A DNA stretch of 64,000 nucleotides from a virus. The stretch lies in IMG/VR virus record IMGVR_UViG_3300029786_000322. One strand, 5' to 3'. The notes under the pieces were generated by a model. The model had not been told where the DNA came from. It did not search any database and saw only the letters and a list, made by a program, of their open reading frames with translations. The stretch's first letter is position 1; each line of letters begins with the position of its first letter. This document shows, in pieces, positions 1,040 to 46,064 of the stretch. A program made the position numbers and the translations under genes.

Positions 1040-1068
1040 TTGACAATTTTCCAGATGGCGCAATATGT
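1040..1068 (+). promoter_or_regulatory. conserved promoter-like element copy 1 (TTGACA-N11-GGCGCAATATGT)
   Basis: One of 12 copies sharing the -35-like TTGACR, an 11-nt AT-rich spacer and an invariant GGCGCAATAT. Lies upstream of leader RNA copy 1 and the helicase gene. Confidence 0.65.
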
Positions 1069-1073
1069 GTATT

Positions 1074-1219
1074 GTAAAGGTCATAAACCGGGCTGCCAGG
1101 GTTACCGGCTGGCAGAAATCCTTTCGATATTTGTTTACGCTTCCGGGGAAACCCGGAAAGGAGCAGGAGGACAGCAGCACATGCTGCTTCCGGGTCCGAT
1201 TCCCGGATGCTTCTTTTAC
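1074..1219 (+). ncRNA. structured leader RNA, copy 1
   Basis: Three hairpins shared with copies at 12637 and 17663. CUGCCAG..CUGGCAG. CCGGGGAAACCCGG, which carries a GNRA loop. CCGGGUCCGAUUCCCGG, which has a tRNA T-loop-like UUCGAUU loop followed by a U-tract. A closing stem AAAGGAGC/GCUUCUUU has G-U covariation between copies. Confidence 0.55.
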
Positions 1220-1280: not shown

Positions 1281-3584
1281 ATGAATCAGAATAAGAAGAT
1301 AGCAGAGAAAAAATCAAGACCATACCAGCAGGAATGCATTGATAAGGTAGACAGCTTAAAAGAAGGAAGATTCCTGATTGCTCTTGCAACAGGGCTTGGG
1401 AAGACATGGATCTTCTCCCACTTTAAGAGATACGGAAGGGTACTTATTCTTTCACACAGGGATGAACTGGTCAACCAGCCGAGACGGTATTTCGACTGTA
1501 GTTTTGGCGTAGAAAAGGCAGAAAACCATTCCAATGGGGAAGAGGTAGTATCTGCGAGTGTTCAGACACTCAGCCATGACTCCCGTCTTAAGCAGTATAA
1601 GCCGGACGATTTCCACACGATCATCATTGATGAGGCGCACCACGCTGCCGCACCATCCTATAAGAAGATCTTAAATTATTTTTCCGGCGCTAAGCGTGTA
1701 ATCGGTGTCACGGCAACTCCGAAGCGTGGCGACAACGTCCGGTTAGATGACGTTTTTAACGAGATTATTTATGCAAAGGATCTTCGTTGGGGGATTAAAA
1801 ATAAATATTTAAGTCCGGTGCACTGCCGGGAGGTCCGTGCAAAATATTCCCTGAAAGGCGTAAAAAAATCTATGGGGGATTTTAATGTATCCGATTTGGA
1901 CGGTTGTATTACGGAAGAAGCTGTAATAAGTGTTGCAAAAGTTCTTACAGACTGTCTCCAGGAGAATCGGCATATTCTTATTTATTGTACTACTGTCAGA
2001 ACCTGTAATTTCCTGAAGGCAGTAGTTGACAAACTGCTCCCGGAAAAAGAACGTGGCAGTGTTGCTGTTTTATCAGGGAAAACACAGGAAGAAGATAGAA
2101 AAAATATGCTTGATGGTTTTATGAACGGGAGTGTCCGCGCCATTATTAACTGCATGGTTTTAACAGAAGGTACAGATCTTCCTATTGCGGATACCATTAT
2201 CAACTTCCGGCCGACGTGCAACGCGTCTTTGTATCAGCAGATCATCGGAAGAGGAACCCGGCTCTATGAAGGTAAGGAAAACTGTTTATGCATTGATATT
2301 CTTCCAGATGATGGCAGCGGGACAAGAAATCTGTGTACAGCTCTTACTCTTTTTGGTATAGATGCAAAACTTCTTGGAAAGAAACAGTCTCGAATGCTTG
2401 AAGGTGAGATTGATCCGCTTGAGATTAGCGATGAAATTGCAGGACGATTTGCAGAACTTACAAAGGCGTATGAATATCGGTTGGAGCAGGTTAATCGCTT
2501 TGTGCAGGAGCAGGAAGAAATTATATCTTCTGCGCGGAAGAAACCACATGCAGATTTAAGCGACCTTGCGCATGCAGTAGATAAATATAATTCAAAGAAA
2601 ATGGATGAATTCCAAAATGATTATGATTTTCTTGGAATGGATTACTCACTTATGCCGGATACGGAACATCGTTATTGTATCAAACCTACATGGAATGACC
2701 ATATTTACCTTGCTGATCCAGATGTTATGGGTAATACAACAGTTACGTTTGATCTTACTGCCAGTGTCGGGAAATATTATATCGGTGAAATGAAAATGCA
2801 GGATGCAATTTCATTTGTTCATGATTTTTGTATGGTATCTCCAGATTATATGAAATATTCCTGGAACGTGGCATTACAAGATGAATGGGGGAAAATAAAA
2901 GCAACTGAAAATCAAATTGGACGTCTTATGAATGAGTATGACGGGTTTCACAAAGGAAATATTAACAAACTTCAAGCATCCAGACTGATTGATCTTGCCT
3001 CTCGTATTTCGAAGATGAAGGCAGAGGGGAAAATGATGCTTATTACACCAAGAATGCAGGAAAAAACAATTGATAAAAAAAAGAAAATGTTTAAGGAAAT
3101 ACTCGAAAAGGAACTGAGGGCAAAAGAGCAGGGGCGTAGTGAGTTTGGAGAATTCCAGTCGAAAATCTTTGCTTTGGCAGAAAAAAAGAAAAAAGACGAA
3201 GAGAAATTAAAGAACCAAAAGCCTTTGGAAGAAGAAATGCTCGAAAATGGGGCGATTACAGTTAATATTGCTGTTTTTAGTTCAAAAAAAACAGCAAGCG
3301 ATGCGCAGATAAAATTTCTTGGTAATTTAAAAGATAAATTAAAAAACAGAGGAGTGGCTGTCGATAAAAAAATTCCTTATATAGGAATGGGAGCAGAAGA
3401 GGCAAGTGTATATATTACTATATTAAAAACGCTTGTAGATCGTAACGTAGACCTTATAAAATATGGTAAAAAAATTTATTTTAATCCAAATACAATCATG
3501 AGTGTTGTATTAAAACTAAAGGACACTTCATCCAGAGAAATTAAATGTTGTATCCCGTTCGAAAAAATAGAAGAATTGAGATAA
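1281..3584 (+). CDS. superfamily-2 DEAD/DEAH-box helicase (type III restriction res-like ATPase core) with a long Lys-rich C-terminal extension
   Basis: Walker A ATGLGKT, DEAH box IIIDEAHH, motif III VTATP, motif VI QQIIGRGTR. RBS AGGGAG precedes the ATG. Confidence 0.85.
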   Translation: MNQNKKIAEKKSRPYQQECIDKVDSLKEGRFLIALATGLGKTWIFSHFKRYGRVLILSHRDELVNQPRRYFDCSFGVEKAENHSNGEEVVSASVQTLSHDSRLKQYKPDDFHTIIIDEAHHAAAPSYKKILNYFSGAKRVIGVTATPKRGDNVRLDDVFNEIIYAKDLRWGIKNKYLSPVHCREVRAKYSLKGVKKSMGDFNVSDLDGCITEEAVISVAKVLTDCLQENRHILIYCTTVRTCNFLKAVVDKLLPEKERGSVAVLSGKTQEEDRKNMLDGFMNGSVRAIINCMVLTEGTDLPIADTIINFRPTCNASLYQQIIGRGTRLYEGKENCLCIDILPDDGSGTRNLCTALTLFGIDAKLLGKKQSRMLEGEIDPLEISDEIAGRFAELTKAYEYRLEQVNRFVQEQEEIISSARKKPHADLSDLAHAVDKYNSKKMDEFQNDYDFLGMDYSLMPDTEHRYCIKPTWNDHIYLADPDVMGNTTVTFDLTASVGKYYIGEMKMQDAISFVHDFCMVSPDYMKYSWNVALQDEWGKIKATENQIGRLMNEYDGFHKGNINKLQASRLIDLASRISKMKAEGKMMLITPRMQEKTIDKKKKMFKEILEKELRAKEQGRSEFGEFQSKIFALAEKKKKDEEKLKNQKPLEEEMLENGAITVNIAVFSSKKTASDAQIKFLGNLKDKLKNRGVAVDKKIPYIGMGAEEASVYITILKTLVDRNVDLIKYGKKIYFNPNTIMSVVLKLKDTSSREIKCCIPFEKIEELR

Positions 3585-3758: not shown

Positions 3759-3992
3759 GTTGCACCACGCAAGGGTGCAGGGGTGAAATATTATACTGAA
3801 TCGTCGCTGCCTGCATAGATATAGTTGCATCCCTTATGGGATGTATGGGTTGAAATTCAATAGAAACAGATGCATTCGGAGGTGTTACAAGTTGCACCCC
3901 CGCAAGGGGTGCATGGGTTGAAAATAAGAAATGGTAGGAAGGAATTCAGATATGAACATTAGTTGCATCCCGCAAGGGTGCAGGGGTGAAGT
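3759..3992 (+). CRISPR. mini CRISPR array A: 4 type I-C-like repeats, 3 spacers of 33-35 nt
   Basis: Repeats at 3759-3789, 3824-3856, 3891-3925 and 3962-3992. They keep GTTGC...(G/T)GGTTGAAAT ends, but each has a different palindromic stem. Spacer 2 recurs in array D. Confidence 0.7.
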
Positions 3993-5901: not shown

Positions 5902-7725
5902 ATGATCAACGGAGAATTAGTTGTAGATAATTTTGCGGGCGGAGGAGGAGCTTCCACAGGAATTGAACTTGCTACCGGATACAGCGTAGACATAGCTATT
6001 AACCATGATCCGGAGGCCATTAAGATGCATAAAGTAAATCATCCCAATACAAAACACTATTGTGAAAACGTATGGGAGGTTGATCCAGTAAAAGCCTGCA
6101 AGGGGCACCCTGTCGGTCTTGCATGGTTTTCTCCGGACTGTAAGCATTTTTCCAAGGCCAAGGGGGGAAAACCGGTAGAAAAGAATATTCGCGGTCTTGC
6201 GTGGGTTGTGCTTAAATGGGCGGCACTTGTCAGACCAAGAGTTATCATGCTTGAAAATGTGGAAGAATTTCAGACATGGGGACCATGTATTCCTATCAGG
6301 GATAAAGATACAGGACGCGTTATTGTCAGCATGGTAGGAAGGCATGACAGAGAGAAGAACGAGCCGCGTACGAGGGTTGCAGATCCAGGAGAAGTTGTTC
6401 CTGTGGATCGCCAGATATTCCAACCAGATCCTAAAAGGAGCGGCCAGACATACAAAAAATGGAGAAAGCAGCTAGAAGCACTTGGATATGAGATAGATAC
6501 AAAGGAACTTGTAGCAGCTGATTATGGCGCACCTACTATGAGAAAGAGATTCTTTATGATTGCACGGTGTGATGGCAAGCCGATTGTCTGGCCGGAACCA
6601 ACACATGGACCGGCAGATAGTGAAGAGGTAAAGGCAGGACTGTTAAAACCATACGTTGGAGCGTATACGCAATTGGATTTTTCTCTTCCTTGCCCGAGCA
6701 TATTTGATACGGCAGAGGAAATCAAAAGGAAATATGGAATACGCGCTGTACGTCCATTGGCGCAGAAAACAATGGATCGAATCGCAAGAGGATTGAAAAA
6801 GTTCGTATTAGACAATCCGGAGCCGTTTATTATCCAATGCAATCATGGTGGAGAGCGTAGACAAAACGACATCAAAGAGCCTTTACCTACTATTACTGGA
6901 AAACACGGATATGGAATTGTGGAACCTAAGATTGTTCCATATATGGGAACCAATACAACAAATCATCCAGGTGGAAATTGTAAAAATCCTATACATACAA
7001 TTACAACAGGAAATCAACAGTGCCTTATCAGCCCAACGCTGATTCAGTATCATTCCGAAACATCGAAGGATGAAGTCAGAGGCCAATCGATTGAAGATCC
7101 GATAATGACCGTGGATGGTTCGAACCGATACGGATTGGTCACGTCGTTTCTACATAAATATTATGACGGAGGATACACTGGAGCTGGTGATACTGTCGAA
7201 AATCCGTTACCGACAGTAACATCCTGGGATCATAACAGTCTGTGTGCAGTTAATCTGATCCAAATGAATAATCATTGCGATGGAAGGGACGTGAAGGAGC
7301 CAATTCCAACAATCACAGCAGGCGATGGTCATTTCGGAGAGGTTAGAGCATTTCTGATCAAGTATTATGGTCAGGGAACTGGACAGGATGTTAAGGAACC
7401 TTTGGATACGGTTACATCAAGAGATCGATTTGGTTTAGTTACAATTAATGGTACCGACTATAAGATCGTGGATATCGGATTGAGGATGCTTGAACCGAAA
7501 GAACTGTATGGATGCCAGGGATTTCCAGATGATTACATCATAGACCGCGATTACACAGGGAAAAAATACCCAAGAAGCGAGCAGGTACGCAGGTGTGGAA
7601 ATGCTGTATGTCCTCCGATTCCGGCTGCTCTTGTAAAAGCAAATCTTCCGGAATTATGCGTAGCGAAACGCACTGGGAATATGAAAATTCGTGAGGAACA
7701 GACCGGGCAGCTTAGATTTGCATAA
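5902..7725 (+). CDS. DNA (cytosine-5)-methyltransferase, probably multispecific (five tandem target-recognition-like repeats)
   Basis: Motif I FAGGGGAS, PC motif SPDCKHFS, ENV motif MLENVEEF, motif VIII-like QTW. Five repeated blocks KEPLPTITG / EDPIMTVDG / ENPLPTVTS / KEPIPTITAG / KEPLDTVTS. The start is placed at MINGEL, which has an AAGGGG RBS. The track ORF extends to 5671, but the N-terminal extension looks non-coding. Confidence 0.8.
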   Translation: MINGELVVDNFAGGGGASTGIELATGYSVDIAINHDPEAIKMHKVNHPNTKHYCENVWEVDPVKACKGHPVGLAWFSPDCKHFSKAKGGKPVEKNIRGLAWVVLKWAALVRPRVIMLENVEEFQTWGPCIPIRDKDTGRVIVSMVGRHDREKNEPRTRVADPGEVVPVDRQIFQPDPKRSGQTYKKWRKQLEALGYEIDTKELVAADYGAPTMRKRFFMIARCDGKPIVWPEPTHGPADSEEVKAGLLKPYVGAYTQLDFSLPCPSIFDTAEEIKRKYGIRAVRPLAQKTMDRIARGLKKFVLDNPEPFIIQCNHGGERRQNDIKEPLPTITGKHGYGIVEPKIVPYMGTNTTNHPGGNCKNPIHTITTGNQQCLISPTLIQYHSETSKDEVRGQSIEDPIMTVDGSNRYGLVTSFLHKYYDGGYTGAGDTVENPLPTVTSWDHNSLCAVNLIQMNNHCDGRDVKEPIPTITAGDGHFGEVRAFLIKYYGQGTGQDVKEPLDTVTSRDRFGLVTINGTDYKIVDIGLRMLEPKELYGCQGFPDDYIIDRDYTGKKYPRSEQVRRCGNAVCPPIPAALVKANLPELCVAKRTGNMKIREEQTGQLRFA

Positions 7726-7865
7726 ATTGCATAAATTGCTATACTGTAAAAAGAAAATGTAAATATTGCTATCATTTGTATTTTTATAGACGTTCATATG
7801 CGCAATACATAATTCTTTTTGAAAAAGTAATGAGATGGTAACAAAGAAAAAAGGAGAGTGAAAGA

Positions 7866-12394: not shown

Positions 12395-12410
12395 CAGAAT
12401 ATGTAATTTA

Positions 12411-12456
12411 AGACATATACCGGGGTACTTGCGTATTCTGGTATATGTCTTTTTAT
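12411..12456 (+). terminator. rho-independent terminator
   Basis: 11-bp stem AGACATATACC / GGTATATGTCT followed by TTTTTAT. Confidence 0.7.
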
Positions 12457-12602: not shown

Positions 12603-12629
12603 TTGACGATTTTTCAAAAGGCGCAATAT
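12603..12629 (+). promoter_or_regulatory. conserved promoter-like element copy 4
   Basis: TTGACG-N11-GGCGCAATATGTATAGTG. Confidence 0.65.
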
Positions 12630-12636
12630 GTATAGT

Positions 12637-12780
12637 GTAAAGGTCATAAACCGAGCTGCCAGGGTTACCGGCTGGCAGAAAATCCTTTCGAAAAATGTTT
12701 ACGTTCCGGGAAATCCCCGGAAAGGATAGTGGGTACGCAGCGCAAGTTATTCCGGGTTCGACTCCCGGATATCCTTTTTC
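12637..12780 (+). ncRNA. structured leader RNA, copy 2
   Basis: Same three-hairpin architecture and T-loop-like terminal hairpin plus U-tract as copy 1. Closing stem AAAGGAUA/UAUCCUUU. Confidence 0.55.
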
Positions 12781-14301: not shown

Positions 14302-14391
14302 CGCAGACACCGGGGATCGAACCCGGACAGCGGGTGTGCCGCATGCCACATTAGCAGTGTGGAGGGGTACCATTTACCTTTATATGTCTGC
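14302..14391 (-). tRNA. class II tRNA-Ser(GCT), provisional
   Basis: 90 nt. Anticodon arm CCACA-CTGCTAA-TGTGG, long variable arm GCGG..CCGC, T-arm CCGGG-TTCGATC-CCCGG, acceptor GCAGACA/TGTCTGC. Confidence 0.55.
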
Positions 14392-17116: not shown

Positions 17117-17222
17117 TTGCATTCCAGTGGAATGCATGGGGTGAAAGAAATAGGCAAATCGCATGACAATTTCTGAAATTAAATTGTTGCGCTCCCGTGG
17201 AGGGGGGCGTATGGATTGAAAT
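17116..17222 (+). CRISPR. mini CRISPR array B: 2 repeats, 1 spacer
   Basis: Repeats GTTGCATTCCAGTGGAATGCATGGGGTGAAA and GTTGCGCTCCCGTGGAGGGGGGCGTATGGATTGAAAT. Begins at the last base of the upstream stop codon. Confidence 0.55.
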
Positions 17223-17628: not shown

Positions 17629-17655
17629 TTGACGATTTTTTAAATGGCGCAATAT
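17629..17655 (+). promoter_or_regulatory. conserved promoter-like element copy 6
   Basis: TTGACG-N11-GGCGCAATATGTATCATG. Confidence 0.65.
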
Positions 17656-17662
17656 GTATCAT

Positions 17663-17805
17663 GTAAAGGTCATAAACCGAGCTGCCAGGGTTATCGGCTG
17701 GCAGAAATCTTTTCGATATTTGTTTACACTCCGGGGAAACCCGGAAGGGGTAGTGAGGACGCAGCGTGTGCTGTTTCCGGGTTCGATTCCCGGGTATCCC
17801 TTTTG
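17663..17805 (+). ncRNA. structured leader RNA, copy 3
   Basis: Same architecture as copies 1 and 2. CCGGGUUCGAUUCCCGG T-loop-like hairpin plus U-tract. Closing stem AAGGGGUA/UAUCCCUUUU. Confidence 0.55.
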
Positions 17806-18020
17806 ACTGCCACATACGGTCTTCTCAAAATTCAGCCGTCTGCGGCCTGTGGAACTTTCCACTGGACCAAAATAACGATAACCGCCAGAATAACAGCAGC
17901 GTGCGTTGGCGTGAGAACTATCGGCGCACAGGGATTACTCCTTTCATATTTATCTATCAAACCTTTCCGTACATCGTATGGAAAGGTTATGGGACAGCAG
18001 GTGCATAGACATGAACTATT

Positions 18021-18050
18021 CCGGGATCGTTTCCCGGATGTTCCATTTTT
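18021..18050 (+). terminator. attenuator-like hairpin plus T-run in the long 5' UTR of the 18083 gene
   Basis: CCGGGATCGTTTCCCGG followed by ATGTTCCATTTTT. Confidence 0.4.
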
Positions 18051-18082
18051 AAAACATTAAAACAAATCATAGGAGGGAATTG

Positions 18083-18808
18083 ATGATGGAGAAAGAAGTA
18101 GTATATGTTGCAGAACTGGATTCCGATGTTGATGATGTCGTTGCGGCACATTACTTATTTAACGAGGGTGTGTTAAAGTGTGTAGTATGCGATCCATATC
18201 CAAGAACACCGGAGGGGTTGGCACGAAAGGGAAAGCTGGAAGCGCTTGGCATCGATGTGGTTAAGAAAATGCCACCGGTTGCAAAATATGTGTTTGTTGG
18301 CGGCGCTCTTACGGCTGTTGCTGGCTATATCCGGATGCACCATGTCGACTGGCTGGTAATGAACGGAGGCTTTGTTGGAGCAAATATTGCGACCTTTGAA
18401 CTGGATAAGTTCAAGGGGAAGAACACTGTCCGTACCTTCAATTTCAACTGCGATGTTGTGGCTGCAGATACGGTTTTGAAAACTGATGAGAAGCATATTT
18501 CTCATATTGTTCTTGTCGGAAAAAACGTCTGCCATGACGTCCGAAATACGAAAAATGGTCTCTGGAGTGGCGAGAAATACAAGAAATTGTTCGATGAGTA
18601 CCGGGTTAAGGATGAGAAGCGTCAACACGACTTGCTTGCCTGCCATGAGGGGCTTGCATTTCTGCGGGGAACCAATGCGATCTGTGAGTATGAGATGGTA
18701 AGACCATACAACACAGGCTTGAATGGCAAGCTGACGCAGTGGGGTAGCACAAAAACCATGGAAACACCATATCGCGAAGTGCTTGCTGCTGTTGGCTACC
18801 AGAATTAA
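18083..18808 (+). CDS. hypothetical protein, about 241 aa
   Basis: GGAGGG RBS. ATG at 18083; the track gives a TTG at 18080. Confidence 0.6.
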   Translation: MMEKEVVYVAELDSDVDDVVAAHYLFNEGVLKCVVCDPYPRTPEGLARKGKLEALGIDVVKKMPPVAKYVFVGGALTAVAGYIRMHHVDWLVMNGGFVGANIATFELDKFKGKNTVRTFNFNCDVVAADTVLKTDEKHISHIVLVGKNVCHDVRNTKNGLWSGEKYKKLFDEYRVKDEKRQHDLLACHEGLAFLRGTNAICEYEMVRPYNTGLNGKLTQWGSTKTMETPYREVLAAVGYQN

Positions 18809-18810
18809 AA

Positions 18811-18915
18811 GCTGCATCATGTGCGGGGGTGTATGGATTGAAATGTCGGAGTATGGTGTAAGAATCATATATATTCCTACGTTGTGCTCCTCCCGGTTGG
18901 TGCACGGGTTGAAAT
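18811..18915 (+). CRISPR. mini CRISPR array C: 2 repeats, 1 spacer
   Basis: GCTGCATCATGTGCGGGGGTGTATGGATTGAAAT, a 35-nt spacer, then GTTGTGCTCCTCCCGGTTGGTGCACGGGTTGAAAT. Starts 2 nt after the upstream stop codon. Confidence 0.55.
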
Positions 18916-20486: not shown

Positions 20487-20506
20487 GTAAGAAGATATAC
20501 TTTACT

Positions 20507-20724
20507 GTTGCGCCCCATTGGGTGCATGGGTTGAAATCTTTATGACCTTCTGAAAAGTGAGGGCATCTTAGTTGCACCCCCGCAAGGGATGTATGGGTTG
20601 AAATTCAATAGAAACAGATGCATTCGAAGGCGTTACAAGTTGCACCCCGCGAGGGGTGTATGGGTTGAAATTGCAGAAAGCTCAGGATTGGAAGGTTGCA
20701 TCCTATGGGATGCATGGATTGAAA
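20507..20724 (+). CRISPR. mini CRISPR array D: 4 repeats, 3 spacers
   Basis: Repeats at 20507-20537, 20571-20604, 20639-20671 and 20695-20724 with divergent stems. Spacer 2 (20605-20637) is near-identical to spacer 2 of array A. Starts 20 nt after the upstream stop. Confidence 0.7.
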
Positions 20725-20828: not shown

Positions 20829-20855
20829 TTGACGATTTTTTAAAAGGCGCAATAT
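20829..20855 (+). promoter_or_regulatory. conserved promoter-like element copy 7
   Basis: TTGACG-N11-GGCGCAATAT. Its flank CCAAAATCTTTTGAC matches spacer 3 of the main array. Confidence 0.6.
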
Positions 20856-20863
20856 ACATATTG

Positions 20864-21085
20864 AAGGGATAAACAGGGGCTTACCGTTTGTTTCTTCAAT
20901 AAGAGTTTTTCTCTTATATGCCTCCTTAAGTTTCCTGCGCTGCATTTACAGCATTTTGGCAGCGCAGGGGGAATCCACAGGACTGCATTTGACGTTGTGT
21001 GGCGGCCTGCTCATCCGGTTCAACCCCGGAGGATTCCCTTACCGCTTATTTTTGCGGAGACAAAAATTTTAAAAAATATTCAAAA
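20864..21085 (+). ncRNA. candidate small structured RNA between promoter copies 7 and 8
   Basis: No ORF with an RBS. Several strong hairpins, including CCTGCGCTGC...GCAGCGCAGG, GGGAATCC...GGATTCCC and CCGC-ttattttt-GCGG. Confidence 0.35.
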
Positions 21086-21117: not shown

Positions 21118-21170
21118 GTGTATTGAAGGAATAAACAGGGGCTTGCCGCTGTTGATTACCAGAGTTAAAA

Positions 21171-21200
21171 GTTGTGCCCCTATGGGGTGCATGGGTAATA
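21171..21200 (+). CRISPR. solitary degenerate CRISPR repeat in the cas5 5' UTR
   Basis: GTTGTGCCCCTATGGGGTGCATGGGTAATA has the repeat 5' end and hairpin but a degenerate 3' handle. Confidence 0.35.
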
Positions 21201-21210
21201 AGAGAAAGGA

Positions 21211-21885
21211 ATGGAAAAAGAAAAAATGGGAGTGAAACTAAAAGTCTGGGGAGATTACGCATTGTTCACCAGACCAGAACTGAAAACTGAACGGTATACA
21301 TACGATGTGATGACACCGTCGGCGGCTAGAGGAATTCTGGAATCTATCTACTGGCATCCGGGACTTCGGTGGTATGTAGACAAGATTCATGTATTAAATC
21401 CGATTGCCACTACGAGCGTGAGAAGAAATGAACTTCTCAGTAAGATACCAAAGTCAAATATGCTGCAGGCATACAACGGCGGGGATGTGAAACTGTATAA
21501 CTCGTCAAGAGACGATATTATCCAGAGGGCATCTGTTATTCTCCGGGATGTCTGCTATGTGATTGAGGCGCATTTTGAAATGACAGGGAAAGCGAGCCCA
21601 ACAGACAGCCCGGCAAAGTTTATAAGTATCTTTAACAACAGGGCAAGAAAAGGGGCATGTTATTCGATGCCGTATTTTGGTGTAAGGGAATTCCCGGCAC
21701 ACTTTGAACTCTGCGAAGGAGATGAAAAGATCCCATCCTACTATGAAGGACTTCCGGATAAAGATCTCGGGCTGATGCTTTATGATCTGGATTACTCCTG
21801 CGGTAGAGATATCCAGCCAATGTATTATCATGCGATTATGAAAAACGGCGTTATTGACGTTGGGAACAGTGAGGTGCTTCGATGA
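21211..21885 (+). CDS. cas5: Cas5 (type I-C Cas5d, crRNA-processing subunit)
   Basis: N-terminal LKVWGDYALFTRPE...SAARGILESIYWHPG is the Cas5d signature. The stop overlaps the cas8c start (ATGA). Confidence 0.9.
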   Translation: MEKEKMGVKLKVWGDYALFTRPELKTERYTYDVMTPSAARGILESIYWHPGLRWYVDKIHVLNPIATTSVRRNELLSKIPKSNMLQAYNGGDVKLYNSSRDDIIQRASVILRDVCYVIEAHFEMTGKASPTDSPAKFISIFNNRARKGACYSMPYFGVREFPAHFELCEGDEKIPSYYEGLPDKDLGLMLYDLDYSCGRDIQPMYYHAIMKNGVIDVGNSEVLR

Positions 21886-23621
21886 TCCTTCAGTCACTTG
21901 TGAAATTATATGAAACACTTGCGGATCAGGGAAAAGTGTCCCGTCCTGGCTGGTGTAATGCAAAGGTATCCTATGCGGTGGTTTTAAACCATGATGGGAC
22001 GATTAAAGATATTGTTTCCGTGAAACAGAAAGTGAAGAGAGGAAAGAAGACTGTTGAAATTCCAATAATTATGCAGGTTCCAGAGATGGTCACCCGCGCT
22101 AACAACATTGCCTCCAGCTTTCTCTGCGAAAATGCAAAGTATCTCTTTGGGATTGACGAAAAGATGAGTTTGCGTACACTGGAATGTTTTAAGGCGGCAA
22201 AGAAAAAACATCTTGATATTCTTGATGTTGTGGATTCACCTGTAGCACAGACGGTATGTAACTTTTTCCGTTCATGGGATCCGGAACAGGCGTTGGATCA
22301 ACCGGCTGTTGCAAAACTTGCAGAAGAGTTTTATAAAGGCGGAAACCTCGTTTTTGAAGTAGATGGGGAATATGTGCATGATAATGAAGAAGTCCGCAGG
22401 GCATGGATGGATTACAGCAGTGTACCATATGAAATGGTAACTGGAAGATGCCTTATTACTGGAGAGGAAGCGGAGATTGCCCGCACGCACGGGAAAATCA
22501 AAGGAGTTCCGGGAGCACAGTCATCTGGCGCGTCGCTTGTATCATTTAACGGAGCATCCCTTGAGTCTTATGAAAAAACACAGAGCTACAACGCGCCGAT
22601 TAGCACCTATGCGGCGTATGCATATGTGACCGCGCTGAATTACTTGCTTTCTACGGACGGGTATCACAGCAAGGTAGGAGATTCCATGGTGGTTTTCTGG
22701 ACAGATTCCGGGGATGTGGATGATGTGAGCAGACTGCGGAAGATGATGGGAAGCATCAATGAAAAGGATCACACCCCTACAGATACGGATGAAAAACTGT
22801 ACGTCCTCTGCCTTGCACCAAATGCCGGGCGAATTGCAGTCCGGTTCTTCTATGAGGATGCGATCGGGGTAATCTGGGAAAACCTGTCCGAACATGCCAG
22901 TCGGATGAAGATTGTAAAACCAGTATTTGAGGATCAAGAATTTATCAATATCTGGCAGATGCTCATGGAGACAGTCAACCAGAATCTTACAGATAAAACA
23001 CCTGTCCCGCATATGTCAGCAATGACGTTACAGTCAGTCATTTCGGATACACCGTATCCGCAGAGTCTGTATGCAGGTGTGTTATCTCGTATCCGCGCGG
23101 AGCACAAAGGTGTTACTTACAGAAAAGCATCGATTATTAAAGCTTTTTTAATAAAGAACTACAAATGGGAGGAAGGAAAAAATATGGAAGCATTAAATGA
23201 AGGCTGTAAGGATCGGGCATATATCCTTGGAAGACTGTTTGCGGTTATGGAAAAGGCACAGAAAGAAGCAGTTGGCAATATCAACCAGACAATTTGTGAT
23301 AAGTTTTACAATTCCGCGTGCACAACACCAAGATCGATCTTTCCAGTACTGATCAGGCTATCTAACAGTCATTTAAGTAAGTTGAAACGGACAAAACCGG
23401 GGAGAGGATATTATTTTACAGCTAAAATGCAGGATTTAATGGATAAAATTCCGGTAACAGATGATGATCCGGGATTCCCGCGGCGTTTCTCATATGAGGA
23501 TCAGGGTAAGTTTGCACTTGGTTATTATCATCAGATGCGGGCGGAATATACAAGCAGTAAGTTAAAAGATAATGATTCAGAAGGTGATCAGACAAATGCA
23601 GAGAATATGGAGGAAAACTAA
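21882..23621 (+). CDS. cas8c: Cas8c (Csd1), type I-C large subunit
   Basis: 579 aa. Its position between cas5 and cas7 and its size fit Csd1. N-terminal MILQSLVKLYETL. Confidence 0.85.
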   Translation: MILQSLVKLYETLADQGKVSRPGWCNAKVSYAVVLNHDGTIKDIVSVKQKVKRGKKTVEIPIIMQVPEMVTRANNIASSFLCENAKYLFGIDEKMSLRTLECFKAAKKKHLDILDVVDSPVAQTVCNFFRSWDPEQALDQPAVAKLAEEFYKGGNLVFEVDGEYVHDNEEVRRAWMDYSSVPYEMVTGRCLITGEEAEIARTHGKIKGVPGAQSSGASLVSFNGASLESYEKTQSYNAPISTYAAYAYVTALNYLLSTDGYHSKVGDSMVVFWTDSGDVDDVSRLRKMMGSINEKDHTPTDTDEKLYVLCLAPNAGRIAVRFFYEDAIGVIWENLSEHASRMKIVKPVFEDQEFINIWQMLMETVNQNLTDKTPVPHMSAMTLQSVISDTPYPQSLYAGVLSRIRAEHKGVTYRKASIIKAFLIKNYKWEEGKNMEALNEGCKDRAYILGRLFAVMEKAQKEAVGNINQTICDKFYNSACTTPRSIFPVLIRLSNSHLSKLKRTKPGRGYYFTAKMQDLMDKIPVTDDDPGFPRRFSYEDQGKFALGYYHQMRAEYTSSKLKDNDSEGDQTNAENMEEN

Positions 23622-23622
23622 G

Positions 23623-24534
23623 ATGAGCACACCAATTAAGAACAGATATGATTTCGTAGTATTATTCGACGTAGAGAATGGAAATCCGAACGGTGATCCG
23701 GATGCCGGAAATATGCCGAGAGTTGATCCAGAGACTGGCATCGGGCTTGTGACAGATGCCTGCATAAAGCGCAAGATCCGTAATTATGTGGAAACTGTAA
23801 AAGAAGATGCAGCCGGGTTCAAGATCTATATTAAAGAGGGGGTCCCGCTGAACCGGAGTGACCTTAAGGCAGTCGAAAGTCTTGGTATTGACGTCGGTGA
23901 CGACAAAAATGCACTTGAAGATGTAAAGAAGCTGAAAAAGACAGATGAAGATGTGGATCTTAAGCTCCGTGACTATATGTGTAGTAATTTCTATGATATC
24001 CGTACATTTGGTGCTGTCTTGACTACCTTTACAAAGGCGGCATTAAACTGTGGGCAGGTACGTGGCCCGGTACAGATTGGTTTTGCAAAAAGTATTGATC
24101 CTGTTTTCAGCCAGGATATTACTGTAACCAGAGTTGCAATCACAACGGAAAAGGATGCGGAAAAGAAAAATACAGAAATGGGAAGAAAGAGTATTATTCC
24201 TTATGGACTTTACCGTGTGGAGGGATATATTTCTGCTAATCTTGCCCGTAAGACCACCGGCTTTTCTGAAGACGATCTGGAACTGCTTTGGGAAGCAATC
24301 ATTAACATGTTTGAGAATGACCATTCCGCAGCACGCGGGAAGATGGCAGTGCGTGAGCTCATCGTATTCAAGCATAACAGCGAGCTTGGCAATTGTCCAT
24401 CGTACAAACTGTTTGAAACTGTTGATGTTAAGAAGAATGATGGTGTTGAGTTTCCTCGTAAATATTCCGATTATGCAGTGACTATTCATGAGGATGCGAT
24501 TCCGGATGGCGTGACAATGACTCGCAAAATCTAA
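23623..24534 (+). CDS. cas7: Cas7 (Csd2), type I-C backbone subunit
   Basis: Start at MSTPIKNRYDF with a GGAGGA RBS. DVENGNPNGDPDAGNMPR is the Csd2 signature. Confidence 0.9.
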   Translation: MSTPIKNRYDFVVLFDVENGNPNGDPDAGNMPRVDPETGIGLVTDACIKRKIRNYVETVKEDAAGFKIYIKEGVPLNRSDLKAVESLGIDVGDDKNALEDVKKLKKTDEDVDLKLRDYMCSNFYDIRTFGAVLTTFTKAALNCGQVRGPVQIGFAKSIDPVFSQDITVTRVAITTEKDAEKKNTEMGRKSIIPYGLYRVEGYISANLARKTTGFSEDDLELLWEAIINMFENDHSAARGKMAVRELIVFKHNSELGNCPSYKLFETVDVKKNDGVEFPRKYSDYAVTIHEDAIPDGVTMTRKI

Positions 24535-24784
24535 AAAGATTTCCAGAGATTACAAGGCAACCCGCGTTTTGCGGGCTGCATCTGCTTGGGTTATGCCGAA
24601 ATGTAGAATTCCGGTGCGAACTGAAAGCTTACATAGCTTCTCTGGGAGACTCGCACCGGAAATGGAGGTATTAGTGTACAAAAAGAACACAAAACCCAAC
24701 TGTATAAGGCCGTTTGAGAACAATTAATTAGAGGAATTGTTTATATTTTGGCGATCGGGAGAGTTGTTTCTGTTCACTTTTACA

Positions 24785-25482
24785 GCTACGCCCCATGGAG
24801 GGGCGTATGGATTGAAAATGATTGTTATTGTTTTTTATTCATGGAGAGGAAAGCTACGCCCCATGGAGGGGCGTATGGATTGAAAAGTAAGGTTTCGTCT
24901 CGAAGCCTTTATTCTGTTTTGCTACGCCCCATGGAGGGGCGTATGGATTGAAATACCAAAATCTTTTGACATTCTTATAAATGGTAACAGCTACGTCTTA
25001 TGGGGTACGTATGGATTGAAATCATAATAATTGTAGAGATCTCAATACAAAATAAAGCTGCGTCTCATGGAATACGTATGGATTGAAATGAAAAGGCGAG
25101 TTTGCGAAAGCAGATATTGGAATGTTGCGTCTCGTGGAGTACGTATGGATTGAAATTCCAACTTTAACTACATAACTATCCTGATAAACTTGCTGCACCC
25201 CATGGAGAGTGTATGGATTGAAATTTAAAAAATCATGGATAACATCTGCGATAAGACGTTGCACCTCGCTAGGGGTGTATGGGTTGAAATTTCCATAATC
25301 GGTAGCCAATTATTATCATTAGGTGTTGCACCCCATAGAGGGTGTATGGATTGAAATTATATAAAAATGATGAATATGTAAAAAAAATAAAAGAGTTACG
25401 CTCCATGGAGTGCGTATGGCTTGAAACCTCTTATTTTTTTAAAGATATCACAATTACGCCCAAAGTGGGCTTACGTAAATTT
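24785..25482 (+). CRISPR. main CRISPR array: 10 repeats of 33 nt plus a degenerate terminal repeat, spacers of 33-37 nt
   Basis: Repeats at 24785, 24853, 24921, 24990, 25057, 25124, 25192, 25258, 25325 and 25395. A degenerate eleventh sits at 25454-25482. The first three are identical (GCTACGCCCCATGGAGGGGCGTATGGATTGAAA). Later ones keep the GYTRC 5' end and TATGGATTGAAAT 3' handle but have different, internally complementary stems. Confidence 0.85.
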
Positions 25483-40059: not shown

Positions 40060-40634
40060 ACAGTGAAATATTTAGAGTAGGTCAAACCTACAGTTTCATG
40101 GGTTACGATTGGACGGCCTGTGAGCTGATCAATAAAGGTAAAACCCTTGTGATTCAGTCCCATGGTGTAACCCATGGGGAATGGCCGGGCTTTGTAATGC
40201 CACAGTTTGGCAATGGTAATTACTATGCTGATTCCATTGATGGACAGGATATCAGTGCCTATGACAACAAGATGCAGGCACTCTACGATGCCATCAAGGA
40301 TGCTGAGGATTCATCCACTTCCTATGGTAAGGGATTGTTTCTTATTAGCAAAGAAAAAGTCGGTTTTACGGAATGGGGTAAATCTGGTTCCGGAAATTAC
40401 TGGCAGGCTTTGAAAAAAACAGCGGAAAACGCCTGTTCGTTCGGGTCTCCCGACAACTATGCGTGGCTTGGTACCGTCTACGGTAGCGGCGGCGCGTGGT
40501 ATGTCAACTCGAATGGCGGCGTCTCCTACAACGATCAGAGCGACGACTATGTGGTCGCGCCCGCTTTTAATCTCGACTTATCCAAAGTTGAGGTTGTTGA
40601 AAATCAAATTGTCAAAATAAGGTTAGAAAGGTGA
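40056..40634 (+). CDS. hypothetical protein, tandem paralog A
   Basis: About 60% identical to 40631-41257 (WTACELINKGKTLVIQSHGVTHG...VAPAFNLDLSK). GGAGAAG RBS. Confidence 0.6.
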   Translation: MNSEIFRVGQTYSFMGYDWTACELINKGKTLVIQSHGVTHGEWPGFVMPQFGNGNYYADSIDGQDISAYDNKMQALYDAIKDAEDSSTSYGKGLFLISKEKVGFTEWGKSGSGNYWQALKKTAENACSFGSPDNYAWLGTVYGSGGAWYVNSNGGVSYNDQSDDYVVAPAFNLDLSKVEVVENQIVKIRLER

Positions 40635-41257
40635 AAAATATGAATAGTCAAATTACAAAAAATAACAATGTTTTAGAACTCGGAAAAACATACCAATTTG
40701 CCGGTTATAAATGGACAGCCTGTGAACTGATCAATAAAGGTAAAACTCTTGTGATCCAGTCCCATGGTGTAACCCATGGCGCATGGCCGGGATATGTAAT
40801 GCCGCAGTTCGGCAACGGGAATTTTTATGCAGCAGATATTGATGGCGAGGATATTAGTGCCTACGATGACAAGATGCAGACACTCTACGATGCCATCAAG
40901 GAGGCTGAGGATTCATCCGCTTCCTATAGTAAGGGATTGTTTCTTATTAGCAAAGAAAAAGCCGGTTTTACGGAATGGCGTGAACCCGGCTCTGGAAATT
41001 ACTGGCAGGCTTTGAAAGAGGCTGCGATGAATTATCAGTCGTTCGGGGCTGCCGACGGCATCGCGTCGCTCGGTACTGTCAACGGCAGCAACAACGCGTG
41101 GTATGTCTACTCGGATGGCTACGTCTACAACGACGAAAATCAGGACTACGACTTTGTTGTCGCGCCCGCTTTTAATCTCGATTTATCCAAAATAGAGATT
41201 GTTGGGGACGAGATTATCATTATGCATAAAGAAAATTTTAAAGATGAAGAAAAATAA
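40631..41257 (+). CDS. hypothetical protein, tandem paralog B
   Basis: See paralog A. Confidence 0.6.
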   Translation: MKNMNSQITKNNNVLELGKTYQFAGYKWTACELINKGKTLVIQSHGVTHGAWPGYVMPQFGNGNFYAADIDGEDISAYDDKMQTLYDAIKEAEDSSASYSKGLFLISKEKAGFTEWREPGSGNYWQALKEAAMNYQSFGAADGIASLGTVNGSNNAWYVYSDGYVYNDENQDYDFVVAPAFNLDLSKIEIVGDEIIIMHKENFKDEEK

Positions 41258-42791: not shown

Positions 42792-42812
42792 AGTTGTAGA
42801 AAGGATATATGA

Positions 42813-43193
42813 ATGATTCTAACAGAACATGAACAGGTAATTATTAACAATATGAGACACCCATCAATTCGTACAGTAACGGCGAGCAAATCGTATAAAG
42901 ATTTATCCGATGAAGAGCTTACTTCACTAATTGGCAAAATAGATGACTATGTGAATGAAATTGGTGAAACACAGAGAGCTTTCGGTAATTATGATGAATT
43001 TTACGTATTAGAATTTGATTCGATTAAGGCTCATCTAGTAGATGAATGTCAACGCAGAAAAATTATGCTTAGAATGCAAGGCGATAAATTTGACGTTTAT
43101 CGAAAAGAATATAATGAAATAGTAAATAGCGCAATGAATCATCCTGTTGGATGCAGCCAGACTCATGAAACGGGCGAAAGAGACAACTGTTAA
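42813..43193 (+). CDS. hypothetical ORF inside the insert that splits tnpB
   Basis: 126 aa, RBS AAAGGATATATGAATG. Its end runs into repeat copy 2. Confidence 0.35.
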   Translation: MILTEHEQVIINNMRHPSIRTVTASKSYKDLSDEELTSLIGKIDDYVNEIGETQRAFGNYDEFYVLEFDSIKAHLVDECQRRKIMLRMQGDKFDVYRKEYNEIVNSAMNHPVGCSQTHETGERDNC

Positions 43194-43596
43194 TAACAAA
43201 GGCAAGATCAACAGGAAGAAACGTTTTGGAAAGTCGGTAAAGAACCGGTGCCCGGGCGGTTTCCAGGCTGCCGTGGAAAATAAGTTCAAAACATCCGGCG
43301 GTACATATATAGAAGTACCCAATAATTACAGGGCAAGCCAGTATGACCACACGGCAGATGATTACATAAAAAAGAAGCTGTCCGACAGGATGTATAAACT
43401 TACAGACGGGACACTGGTACAAAGGGACTGGTACTCATCATTCCTGTTGTACTGCTACAATTACAGAACCAATGATATAGATAAAAAGAAATGTGCTGCA
43501 GAATTTAAAAAATGCTACAGCATGGAAAAGGAATTAATTGAATGGATCAAAAAACATAAGATCAAAGTGCTGAACAGCGGAATTAAAACCGCTTGA
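43147..43596 (+). pseudogene. tnpB: displaced C-terminal fragment of tnpB, including the RuvC-III-like QRDWYSSF region
   Basis: In frame with the repeat. Continues ...HTADDYIKKKLSDRMYKLTDGTLVQRDWYSSF, which aligns to the TnpB C-terminus. Confidence 0.5.
43153..43370 (+). repeat. direct repeat copy 2
   Basis: See copy 1. Confidence 0.7.
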
Positions 43597-46040: not shown

Positions 46041-46064
46041 GAAACAGGGAAAGGGAGGGAACGT

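Follow-up and report, generated by a model that had tools for sequence, protein, structure and literature searches.

What is the segment of about 145 nt that recurs, each time behind the same promoter-like box, upstream of unrelated genes in this DNA? In the window (the whole stretch of 64,000 nt that was analysed), it is a repeated, folded 5' leader RNA without a match to any catalogued family, best read as a family of leaders that act in cis. The three copies claimed in the earlier note, at 1074-1219, 12637-12779 and 17663-17804, are present and all lie on the + strand. A fourth, diverged copy (class B) was found at about 17897-18051, without a promoter of its own, between copy 3 and gene 18080-18808. 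The leaders and the spacer between the last two are the following.

1074..1219, + strand: class-A leader copy 1, upstream of the helicase gene 1281-3584 (covariance model R1, 165.2 bits, E 1e-37)
12637..12779, + strand: class-A leader copy 2, upstream of the zinc-ribbon ORF with its ATG at 12813 (R1, 161.4 bits)
17663..17804, + strand: class-A leader copy 3 (R1, 164.9 bits)
17805..17896, + strand: conserved non-coding spacer after c3-type leaders, with further small hairpins
17897..18051, + strand: class-B copy, adjoining the RBS of gene 18080-18808 (R1, 38.3 bits, E 1e-7)

A 34-nt anchor, GGCGCAATATGTNNNNTGTAAAGGTCATAAACCG, has three exact occurrences in the window where 0.00 are expected, and the pattern TTCCGGG-N7-CCCGG is found at 1188, 12750, 17775 and 18019 (0.03 expected). 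The covariance model R1, a check that the earlier note had called for, gives the three copies 161-165 bits and the remainder of the window at most about 38 bits, with the fourth copy at the top. A metagenome search yielded about 35 distinct leader variants on human-gut contigs of 265-354 kb. The number of copies differs between relatives, with three in the window and up to 5-6 in related contigs; their orientation is always sense to the downstream gene, and orthologous leader positions are retained in relatives with 71-73% protein identity. At the orthologues of the zinc-ribbon gene, the leaders have diverged in different ways. The spacer at 17805..17896 is conserved downstream of the c3-type copies in more than 10 related contigs.

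The description of the segment as a conserved, structured, non-coding leader was borne out by indels between copies that are not multiples of three and by compensatory changes. A coding role of the overlapping ORFs at 1065-1277 and 17644-18060 was rejected, given that the frame is not conserved and 1-nt indels separate the copies; the AUG that copy 1 carries in its P4 loop, moreover, is missing from copies 2 and 3.

All three class-A copies follow a promoter-like box, in agreement with the conserved promoter that had been proposed.

1040..1073, + strand: promoter-like box of copy 1, TTGACA at 1040-1045 and the invariant GGCGCAATAT at 1057-1066
12603..12636, + strand: promoter-like box of copy 2, TTGACG and GGCGCAATAT at 12620-12629
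17629..17662, + strand: promoter-like box of copy 3, TTGACG and GGCGCAATAT at 17646-17655

The box TTGAC-N12-GGCGCAATAT (11 nt after TTGACA, that is, 12 nt counted from TTGAC in the search pattern) has at least 11 occurrences in the window, each of them on the + strand and ahead of a gene or CRISPR array. Since a good -10 hexamer is absent 16-18 nt from the -35, the box does not match sigma-70 promoters canonically; judging by the sequence, transcription of copy 1 presumably starts near 1074. The box stands without a leader at 57412, 3654, 9816, 16729, 20829, 21091, 44099 and 48510, so the leader is optional, and at 57412, 9816, 16729, 44099 and 48510 it runs straight into an RBS. A candidate antisense promoter within the leader was discarded, being present in copy 1 only and not conserved.

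The leader folds into five helices, namely P1, P2, the closing stem P3, P4 and P5, distributed as follows.

1093..1115, + strand: P1 hairpin of copy 1, CUGCCAG / GGUUACCGG / CUGGCAG
1116..1142, + strand: single-stranded linker of copy 1, AAAUCCUUUCGAUAUUUGUUUACGCUU, containing the anti-Shine-Dalgarno-like UCCUUUC
1143..1156, + strand: P2 hairpin of copy 1, CCGGG / GAAA / CCCGG, with the same stem sequence as P5
1157..1217, + strand: junction and U-run of copy 1, the minimum-energy fold of the isolated domain
1157-1165 and 1208-1216, + strand: P3 of copy 1, 5' strand AAAGGAGCA and 3' strand UGCUUCUUU
1166-1172, + strand: linker L1 of copy 1, with the conserved GG
1173-1188, + strand: P4 of copy 1, AGCAGC/ACAU/GCUGCU
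1189-1207, + strand: P5 T-arm of copy 1, UCCGGG/UCCGAUU/CCCGGA, with a U at 1217 after P3
12656-12678, 12706-12720, 12721-12728 with 12770-12777, and 12751-12769, + strand: P1, P2, P3 and T-arm of copy 2, whose U-run ends at 12779
17682-17704, 17731-17744, 17745-17752 with 17795-17802, and 17776-17794, + strand: P1, P2, P3 and T-arm of copy 3, whose U-run extends to 17804

In the 5' half, the hairpin CUGCCAG-N9-CUGGCAG is indeed common to the three copies, its loop reading GGUUACCGG in the first two and GGUUAUCGG in the third, and the P1 stem and loop are near-invariant in the class-A alignment. Diverged copies in L092 and L155 have another hairpin, CCCGG-AUACAGG-CCGGG, at the P1 position. The linker is the most conserved unpaired segment, near-invariant in class A as AAAUCCUUUCGAuAuuUGUUUAC, and its core UCCUUUC...(UGUUUAC) is kept in the diverged L092, L016 and L111:6823 and at 17938-17955 of the window. 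The P2 stem is invariant, without compensatory change in class A, and its loop is variable. P2 had been described as a GNRA-capped hairpin, which is true of copies 1 and 3 (GAAA) but not of copy 2 (AAAUC); relatives carry UAAUA, AAAA, AAAAA or AAAAU, and therefore the GNRA cap is not conserved.

The 3' half is a tRNA-like three-way junction made of the closing stem P3, a GG-containing linker, the short hairpin P4 and the T-arm-like P5, which is stacked on P3. This junction is the minimum-energy fold for all three isolated 3' domains (-27.6 kcal/mol and z -3.4 in copy 1), and RNAalifold independently predicts the same junction and helices. The variants of the enclosing stem quoted in the earlier note proved exact, and compensatory among 34 distinct sequences in a structure-blind MAFFT alignment. 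In that alignment P3 is 98% paired, with double changes in 4 of its 9 pairs and exchanges between GC and AU at 3-4 positions. In the model-based alignment, 93% of cells pair and double changes affect 26 of 31 pairs, a result reached by 0 of 500 shuffles. The G-U pairs in P3 make the structure strand-specific.

These data bear on the proposal that the leader is a modular intergenic repeat, comparable to pneumococcal BOX/RUP, or a DNA-level site such as an operator or single-strand initiation signal, which spread with or beside the promoter cassette and has no specific RNA function. The modules are found in varying combinations, with P1' and linker preceding the promoter in L149/L145 and the junction lost in the leaders of L112, and decayed copies exist at L010:12397 and L010:14595; the differing copy number among relatives points the same way. 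Nevertheless, compensatory changes keep P3 paired, its G-U pairs are strand-specific, orthologous positions are kept at the protein identities given above and the orientation never departs from sense, all of which make such a repeat very unlikely.

The class-B copy has the same succession of parts, and it ends next to the RBS of gene 18080.

17901-17929, + strand: class-B P1', GUGCGUU...GGCGCAC
17938-17945, + strand: class-B linker, CUCCUUUC
17962-17986, + strand: class-B P2', CCUUUCC/GGAAAGG
17989-17996 and 18039-18046, + strand: class-B P3', AUGGGACA and UGUUCCAU
18020-18038, + strand: class-B hairpin UCCGGG-AUCGUUU-CCCGGA, with the U-run at 18047-18051

In the class-B homologues of L016, L105, L101, L110 and L163, the T-loops are canonical (UUCGAUU, UUCGAGU) and the stems covary. 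Mimicry of a tRNA T-loop had been suggested for the hairpin at this position. The hairpin is T-arm-like in that it is closed by a G-C pair, its loop is framed by U...A and it is directly stacked on the closing stem, but the exact UUCGAUU is present only in copy 3, copy 1 having UCCGAUU and copy 2 UUCGACU. Among the variants, T-loop positions 55-57 drift (U/C/G, C/A and G/A/C, respectively); the GG of the D-loop-like linker is conserved in all classes. Outside tRNA genes, the strict pattern finds three T-arm-like hairpins versus 0.23 expected, or five if the loop variants at 1189-1207 and 18020-18038 are included. One diverged copy, L111:6823-6940, folds into a cloverleaf that is nearly complete but lacks the anticodon loop, and a further T-arm junction at 20967-21040 has no U-run behind it.

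The earlier note placed a U-tract after the T-hairpin. The U-tract does not adjoin this hairpin but lies after the 3' strand of P3, 8-9 nt further. The argument for mutually exclusive folds likewise fails, because the T-hairpin is nested in the enclosing stem and compatible with it, forming with the short hairpin one three-way junction. A role as terminator is nonetheless plausible, as judged from sequence, since the diverged copies present a clean stem followed by a U4-6 tail and the sites appear in a terminator consensus scan. Every class-A and class-B variant has 3-6 U after the P3 stem, and in class-B copies 4-6 unpaired U follow it immediately. The layout of A-run, GC core and U-run resembles the ordinary terminators of the element at 315-338 and 12410-12451. 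As in intrinsic terminators, a GC-rich stem precedes a U-tract on the sense strand, here within a 5' UTR; the branching and the short U-tract are atypical. Branched terminators are unusual, and termination may be weak, given that the U-tract has only 4-5 U, 2-3 of which are pairable with the A-run.

We prefer to regard the element as a cis-acting leader or attenuator, in which a branched, tRNA-like terminator is placed before a gene whose expression needs read-through; the probability that we assign to this reading is about 0.45, slightly short of even odds. Every copy is located in a 5' UTR, and between it and the gene there is neither a second promoter nor room for one. The distance from the leader to the RBS and start codon is 30-64 nt, or 250-276 nt when the spacer and class-B copy intervene, and orthologous genes in relatives retain the leader. 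Two terminator-like junctions stand in tandem ahead of gene 18080, which argues for factor-dependent rather than merely leaky read-through. Moreover, paralogues that differ by compensated changes in P3 and P4 share an invariant P1 and linker, which implies sequence-specific recognition.

We infer the start of transcription, termination at the U-run and the mechanism of control from these features. Transcription would start at the standard promoter-like box, used at least 11 times by the replicon, and P3 with the U-run would act as a branched intrinsic terminator ahead of the gene, so that read-through would then be required for the helicase, the zinc-ribbon gene and the 18080 operon. Control of read-through may reside in the sequence-invariant 5' half (P1 and linker). 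The controller would most likely be a protein or a factor that modifies RNA polymerase, as in nut, put or conAn2 antitermination; alternative pairing through the identical P2 and P5 stems would be a less likely route.

Known read-through systems include lambda PR'-6S RNA/tR' with Q, nut with N and Nus factors, and the put RNA of HK022. The succession of a hairpin and a conserved single-stranded U/C-rich box resembles the boxB-boxA arrangement, and the linker may resemble boxA, given a 1-nt insertion. RNA-based antitermination is also known in Gram-positive conjugative elements (PMC8191782). Like lambda, nut, put and conAn2 (PMC8191782), the leader is a structured RNA right behind the promoter of a mobile element, with a terminator-like structure to be passed, and one replicon carries it behind several of its promoters, as is the case for putL/putR and nutL/nutR. 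ConAn2 measures 260-600 nt, has a GC-rich box and has been described as poorly conserved (PMC8191782). The leader has no sequence similarity to put, nut, EAR or conAn2, which are marked by two stem-loops (put), boxA/boxB (nut), a pseudoknot (EAR) and SL1 beside the GC-rich box (conAn2), and it gave no match to any Rfam family, a search that covers these elements if they are in the library. In contrast to nut, put and conAn2, its terminator, a three-way junction of tRNA-like form, belongs to the conserved element, its operons are short, so that processive antitermination is not obviously needed, and no candidate antiterminator protein was identified. The T-arm junction at 20967-21040, which lacks a U-run, suggests that the tRNA-like fold may serve a role other than termination.

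A riboswitch had also been envisaged. A metabolite riboswitch is unlikely because the downstream genes are mutually unrelated and share no metabolic theme: one encodes a helicase, another a small zinc-ribbon protein and the third a nucleoside-hydrolase-like protein. In such a ligand sensor, the P1 loop, linker and junction would form the aptamer, and strand exchange between P2 and P5 the expression platform. The high conservation of the unpaired segments is in keeping with it, as are the identical, invariant P2 and P5 stems, which could swap into a state on average 3.6 kcal/mol less stable, and the unconstrained minimum-energy fold, which lacks P3 in 22 of 38 variants. The swap is energetically close but falls in invariant sequence, the alternative pairings have no covariation, the identity of P2 and P5 is not kept in diverged copies, no Rfam riboswitch matches and one gene is preceded by two leaders in tandem. 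The linker and the 5' strand of P3 could pair in 91% of cells, no better than in shuffles, and in truncated transcripts they do so in only 3 of 38 variants; this helix and that between the 5' end and UUUAC were both rejected as pairable yet not above shuffles. The leader thus shares with attenuators and riboswitch platforms the 5'-UTR site, the terminator-like stem with U-run and competing pairings of similar energy. Unlike them, it has neither a leader peptide nor a known aptamer, its terminator stem encloses two further hairpins and its alternative folds have no covariation support. We give a ligand-sensing function very little credence.

The tRNA-like shape raises further alternatives to the leader or attenuator preferred here. 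No known family had been recognised by eye, and the Rfam search that the earlier note had asked for agrees: over the whole window, at the gathering threshold and at E<=0.1, it returned tRNAs and no match to the leaders. At E<=10, two leaders gave only chance-level partial matches (E about 1-6), in which they align weakly with tRNA-Sec, mascRNA and the tRNA-like module of Deinococcus Y RNA. A tRNA or tmRNA was rejected: ARAGORN finds 14 tRNAs in the window and none at the leaders, and is negative on six related loci; the Rfam tRNA model does not match at the leaders even at E<=10 on local stretches; and tRNA-Sec scores 14.6-16.5 bits there versus a gathering threshold of 47. The P4 loop has 4 nt and a D stem is absent, whereas a tRNA (RF00005) is defined by a cloverleaf with D-arm, an anticodon arm with a 7-nt loop, T-arm and 7-bp acceptor stem. 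Alanine identity was also dismissed, since the G3-U70-like pair is limited to copy 1 and is therefore treated as a coincidence.

A junction resembling a pre-tRNA could instead be a module for processing or stability, cut by the host RNase P (and RNase Z or the CCA-adding enzyme); cleavage would remove the 5' part and leave an mRNA with a defined, structured 5' end. Parallels exist in tRNA-mRNA co-transcripts and in MALAT1-mascRNA. As in mascRNA, the tufB-operon co-transcripts and the tRNA-like domain of tmRNA, an acceptor-like stem is stacked on a T-arm, an unpaired stretch with GG provides a D-loop analogue, the anticodon arm is reduced or absent and the whole is embedded in a longer transcript. 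The stacked T-arm and conserved GG, the nature of the best weak Rfam alignments, the excess of T-arm-like hairpins outside tRNA genes, the near-complete cloverleaf of L111:6823-6940 and the junction at 20967-21040 without a U-run all speak for processing. There is also a precedent in the comparable tRNA-like YrlA of M. smegmatis, which is cleaved by RNase P (PMC4201824). However, the coaxial stack comprises 14-15 bp (6 bp in P5 and 8-9 bp in P3) versus the 12 bp that RNase P measures, and the closing stem has 8-9 bp versus the 7 bp of tRNA-like processing signals. A conserved discriminator or CCA is absent after the stem, T-loop positions 55-57 vary, neither ARAGORN nor the Rfam tRNA model calls the leaders, and the high conservation of P1 and linker would be left unexplained. 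On balance, processing is an unlikely explanation.

The resemblance to Y RNAs is closest in the T-arm, CCGGGUUCGAUUCCCGG, which in YrlA and Deinococcus Yrn1 (RF01053; PMC4201824) is identical or nearly so and likewise follows a short hairpin and a GG-containing unpaired stretch; Y RNAs also occur on phages and mobile elements. The T-arm and GG stretch align to RF01053 positions 43-85 with 16-19 bits and E 0.8-2, versus a gathering threshold of 80. Identity with Y RNA was rejected on the missing Ro-binding motif and TROVE neighbour: GNCGAAN0-1G (PMC4201824) is absent from all copies, the nearest being UUUCGAU and UUUCGAA, and a Pfam scan of 60 window ORFs found no TROVE/Ro60 domain. Y RNA is a free-standing gene beside rsr with a Ro-binding helix, unlike the leader, which lies in a 5' UTR and ends in a U-run; a helix of its 5' and 3' ends is not conserved among leaders. 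The same evidence bears on the idea of an abundant trans-acting small RNA of about 145 nt, which at least three strong promoters would produce and termination at the U-run would release; it would either imitate tRNA or serve as its decoy, like a Y RNA, or else regulate through its anti-Shine-Dalgarno motif. The high copy number, the invariant, exposed pyrimidine motif UCCUUUC and the tRNA-like 3' domain with Y RNA as its best weak Rfam match would suit it. Each copy, however, lies in a 5' UTR and must be passed to reach the gene that follows, no target was identified, and the low Y-RNA scores and lack of Ro-binding motif and Ro60/TROVE gene count against it, which leaves a small RNA quite unlikely.

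A more speculative proposal, for which we see only a slender chance, combines the terminator with the tRNA-like fold: the junction would be a functional mimic of the tRNA elbow as well as the leader terminator, and a tRNA-recognising factor, of the host or encoded by the element, would bind the nascent T-arm/GG elbow and thereby control formation of the closing stem. Conceivable binders would be RNase P, the CCA-adding enzyme, an enzyme that modifies tRNA or a tRNA-binding defence or anti-defence protein. If true, reading of the elbow would couple the expression of genes of the element, the helicase gene among them, to the state of the host tRNA-processing machinery. To our knowledge, such a regulatory principle has not been described for bacterial leaders.

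A conserved multi-copy leader whose branched terminator has the shape of a tRNA would add a new RNA family to those catalogued. The element appears to organise its gene expression around one standard promoter, with RNA modules as optional additions, and the leader offers a concrete route to understanding the timing or dosage of genes in such megaplasmids or huge phages. Functional tRNA mimicry, if confirmed, would link transcription control to machinery that recognises tRNA. An ordinary attenuator would still be a well-supported candidate family for Rfam, and would provide a compact natural promoter-plus-attenuator cassette from gut Firmicutes.

The carrier is an extrachromosomal element of about 300 kb from human-gut Firmicutes, either a huge phage or, more likely, a 'Hodor' megaplasmid (PMC12934698). 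In IMG/VR, exact-pattern searches with two leader motifs and a helicase-based search returned nothing or chance matches in unrelated genes, and 71 single matches to the promoter pattern were judged to be chance. The annotated phage and plasmid collections INPHARED and PLSDB gave no match in near or distant mode. In a scan of GTDB representative genomes with the leader pattern, all 29 matches failed the covariance model and thus serve as a 228-kb negative control. Helicase relatives of about 45% identity (L017-L020) were set aside as different elements, in which promoter and leader are absent. One protein of the element is listed in 758 blocks of a public assembly index. None of the CRISPR spacers of the element matches the leader; one of them resembles the promoter.

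Three copies of a folded leader RNA of ~145 nt are found in the window:

1074-1219, + strand, leader copy 1
12637-12779, + strand, leader copy 2
17663-17804, + strand, leader copy 3

Together with the box upstream, they can be aligned over ~165 nt, and the flanking DNA is unrelated on either side. A 34-nt anchor has three exact occurrences in the window (0.00 expected), and TTCCGGG-N7-CCCGG is found in it at the three copies and at 18019 (0.03 expected). A search of the complete window with a covariance model of 34 distinct homologues, filters switched off, scored the three copies at 161-165 bits; the second-ranked match reached 38 bits at 17943-18056, and all others stayed below 11 bits. Alignment, anchor counts and model scores thus agree that the repeat described in the earlier note is real, and every hairpin quoted there is present, with corrected details. 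The leader comprises five helices:

P1, CUGCCAG/CUGGCAG, loop GGUUACCGG
P2, CCGGG/CCCGG, variable loop
P3, closing stem of 8-9 bp
P4, short hairpin
P5, UCCGGG-N7-CCCGGA

When 50 distinct sequences are aligned on the model, pairing holds in 93% of cells and double changes are seen in 26 of 31 pairs; out of 500 shuffles none does as well, and slid controls are 34-56% paired. As such an alignment leans to its model, the count was redone on a plain MAFFT alignment of 34 sequences. Even there the covariation reported earlier for the enclosing stem holds, P3 being 98% paired and four of its positions showing GC<->AU or UA<->CG exchanges. RNAalifold predicted P1, P2, P3, P4 and P5 unaided from the same alignment, in which P1, P2 and P5 are invariant within class A (leaders like the three copies). 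Support for these helices comes from diverged copies carrying other sequences at their positions: the P1 hairpin differs in loci L092 and L155; P2 is CCUUUCC/GGAAAGG or UUCCUC/GAGGAA in locus L016 and in class B, a diverged leader lacking its own promoter (~17897-18051 in the window); and P5 appears as UUCAGGG/CCCUGAA, CUCGGG/CCCGGG or UUUCCGG/CCGGAAU. The minimum-energy structure of the isolated 3' domain is the P3-P4-P5 three-way junction in all copies. G-U pairs in P3 tie the structure to the + strand, and one-base indels between copies rule out a conserved reading frame. Beside such strand specificity, a modular repeat or a site acting at the DNA level seems quite improbable.

A degenerate DNA pattern detected 74 loci on metagenome contigs, and nhmmer with a covariance model gave 59 matches of at least 80 bits, beyond which weaker homologues are diverged, decayed or truncated. 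Among the homologues are 36 distinct class-A sequences of full or near-full length, with up to 5-6 leaders per related contig. All copies sit in 5' UTRs, with no space for a further promoter before the gene. Leaders of the first type lie 64 nt upstream of the helicase ATG and those of the second 30-41 nt upstream of the start of an orthologous 101-aa zinc-ribbon protein; relatives with a 71-73% identical helicase keep a near-identical leader before both genes. The third type is followed by a conserved non-coding module, usually a second, class-B leader, and a gene at +250-276. This module of ~135 nt (17805-17945) ends in a hairpin and CUCCUUUC and has homologues in L110, L149, L117, L100, L014, L148 and other related contigs. 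Depending on the relative, it runs on into the class-B junction or into UGUUUAC and a new promoter, so that RNA modules appear to be shuffled.

The window contains at least 11 instances of the box upstream, TTGAC(A/G)-N11-GGCGCAATAT followed by ~17 semi-conserved transcribed bases (..GUAAAGG..); they stand before genes, CRISPR arrays and non-coding RNAs:

1040, 3654, 9816, 12603, 16729, 17629, 20829, 21091, 44099, 48510, 57412, all + strand, promoter-like boxes

Only three of these precede a leader; the promoter is generic and the leader optional. The box at 57412 leads directly to the RBS and the ATG start of a gene for TnpB (57486-59015, OrfB_IS605 / Cas12f-like TNB), and one relative has an IS200/605 TnpA and TnpB pair downstream of the helicase (L014:4905-6938). 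The -35 is perfect and a canonical -10 is missing at 16-18 nt, so that we infer promoter activity, and a transcription start near 1074, from sequence; the combination suggests that a dedicated sigma factor or regulator may recognise the box. A variant, TTGACA-N14-GGTGCGACAATA, occurs in L149 and L145. In L016, whose helicase is 64% identical, another repeated motif, AAGCGGGAATCCTCGGnTATTCAATTGnCGAGTAnTTCACAAA (L016:146-190, 882-925), replaces the standard promoter and leader before the helicase, and L016:60-131 still has the class-B tRNA-like junction.

P3 is laid out like the element's ordinary terminators, with a GC core between an A-run and a U-run. No class-A or class-B variant lacks the U-run, and in class B 4-6 U follow the stem as a clean tail. 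Gene 18080 lies behind two such terminator-like structures in tandem, and genes behind leaders have no other promoter. The simplest reading, to which we assign a probability of roughly 0.45, is that the leader may be a promoter-proximal branched terminator that would have to be read through before the gene is expressed. A factor would most naturally act at P1 and the linker between P1 and P2, since these are the most strongly conserved parts and the terminator is less so. Leader read-through with a factor site has parallels in nut, put and conAn2, elements of phages and of conjugative plasmids from Gram-positive bacteria (PMC8191782). As a kind of element, cis-regulatory leaders with a terminator are well known; the novelty lies in the proposed terminator, a tRNA-like three-way junction, and in its modular use behind a standard promoter. 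The literature searched contained no description of this leader. The U-tract is short, and termination alone does not explain the tRNA-like shape.

The T-loop likeness pointed out earlier is borne out: P5 is stacked straight onto the 3' strand of P3, like a T-arm on an acceptor stem, and in its loop a U...A frame and the closing G-C pair are retained. GG is always present in the unpaired stretch that separates P3 from P4, as in a D-loop, and a diverged relative (L111:6823-6940) comes close to a full cloverleaf. Such a junction could be an RNase P/Z processing or stability signal, the main rival, which we hold to be less likely. That the leader is a trans-acting tRNA mimic or anti-SD RNA is unlikely; the shape would suit it, and every copy lies in a 5' UTR. 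The leader is not a tRNA, as tRNA finders and models are negative at the leaders; T-loop positions 55-57 drift among variants. In line with the earlier note, no catalogued Rfam family matches: the leader aligns, without significance, with tRNA-like modules only, those of Deinococcus Y RNA (positions 43-85), tRNA-Sec and mascRNA. A Y RNA in the YrlA sense was ruled out, the Ro-binding helix and motif being absent (PMC4201824) and the score 16-19 bits against a threshold of 80; no Ro60 gene was found among 60 window ORFs.

Outside tRNA genes, three strict T-arm-like hairpins occur in the window vs 0.23 expected, and two more (1189-1207 and 18020-18038) have variant loops that the strict pattern missed. 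Of these three, one is part of a distinct non-coding RNA of a third kind (20846-21080), which follows a standard promoter and lies shortly before the promoter of the cas operon. This RNA has a long hairpin and a T-arm three-way junction (20967-21040; T-arm 21014-21030, UCCGG-UUCAACC-CCGGA), the closing stem of which has no following U-run.

The enclosing stem and the T-hairpin had been proposed as mutually exclusive folds. This argument fails because the two are nested, and with P4 they make one junction. Pairing of the invariant linker UCCUUUC with the 5' strand of P3, which is purine-rich, is possible in 91% of cells, but shuffled controls equal this and truncated transcripts rarely adopt the pairing, so this switch was rejected; a helix between the 5' end and UUUAC is likewise unsupported. 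P2 and P5 share one stem sequence, and a partner swap could abolish the junction; under constrained folding the swapped state lies on average 3.6 kcal/mol above the junction state. These stems are invariant, hence beyond covariation, and diverged copies do not keep P2 = P5; the identity is recorded as unexplained, not as evidence. A riboswitch, which the 5' UTR position would fit, is very improbable.

Public assemblies contain the protein of the helicase gene (1281-3584) in identical form in 758 blocks; the contigs are 265-354 kb long and come from human-gut metagenomes. The carrier was absent from INPHARED phages and PLSDB plasmids, the leader and carrier sequences from IMG/VR, and a scan of GTDB species-representative genomes with one leader DNA pattern gave no real copy; among the collections searched, the carrier is known solely from metagenome assemblies. 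Sixty tested window ORFs gave no match to phage structural-protein families; other genes encode methylases, a flotillin-like protein, a PcfJ-like protein, TnpB, GNAT, ASCH and YopX. Type I-C cas5, cas8c (Csd1) and cas7 are present (21211-24534), and cas3, cas1 and cas2 are absent from the window. The CRISPR repeats are degenerate, forming scattered mini-arrays and solitary units with covarying hairpins:

3815-3924, 17188-17222, 18810-18844, 20503-20724, 21170-21203, CRISPR repeats
24784-25432, 45953-46043, 62772-62880, CRISPR repeats

A recent preprint (2026) describes 'Hodor' conjugative megaplasmids of >300 kb in human-gut Bacillota, once filed as huge phages and bearing a type I-C system whose array is degraded (PMC12934698). 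Contig size, gut origin, the type I-C system with its degraded array and the lack of structural-protein matches in 60 ORFs suggest that the window, compared by description alone, fits Hodor better than a phage (PMC12934698).

The cas5 5' UTR holds one degenerate CRISPR repeat. The 'spacer' at 24955-24990, between two repeats, reads ACCAAAATCTTTTGACATTCTTATAAATGG... and matches the standard promoter of the element itself in its -35 half (20819, 17619, 57402), with 15/15 identical and ~24/29 similar. Either this is a guide aimed at the element itself, and Cas3-less CRISPR interference could then act on its own promoters, or the array has a remnant of a promoter in it.

The window has 13 tRNAs in a single array, one elsewhere and one that the finders missed. 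In the array gap, 14302-14387 (- strand) probably encodes tRNA-Ser(GCU) of type II, its variable arm long and its D-arm odd; it is missed by ARAGORN and scores 28.3 bits in Rfam, just below the tRNA threshold of 29. Long direct repeats of 76-99% identity between distant parts and between adjoining genes indicate duplicated gene segments:

6505-6886 and 7559-7728 vs 61373-61755 and 62503-62672, direct repeat pairs
40084-40383 / 40686-40985, direct repeat pair
42568-42792 / 43151-43375, direct repeat pair
49997-50193 / 50671-50867, direct repeat pair

In one related contig (L010:1511-6154), and not in another (L012:4235-6154), a reverse-transcriptase (RVT_1) gene interrupts an LPD1-domain gene, which looks like a group II intron insertion.
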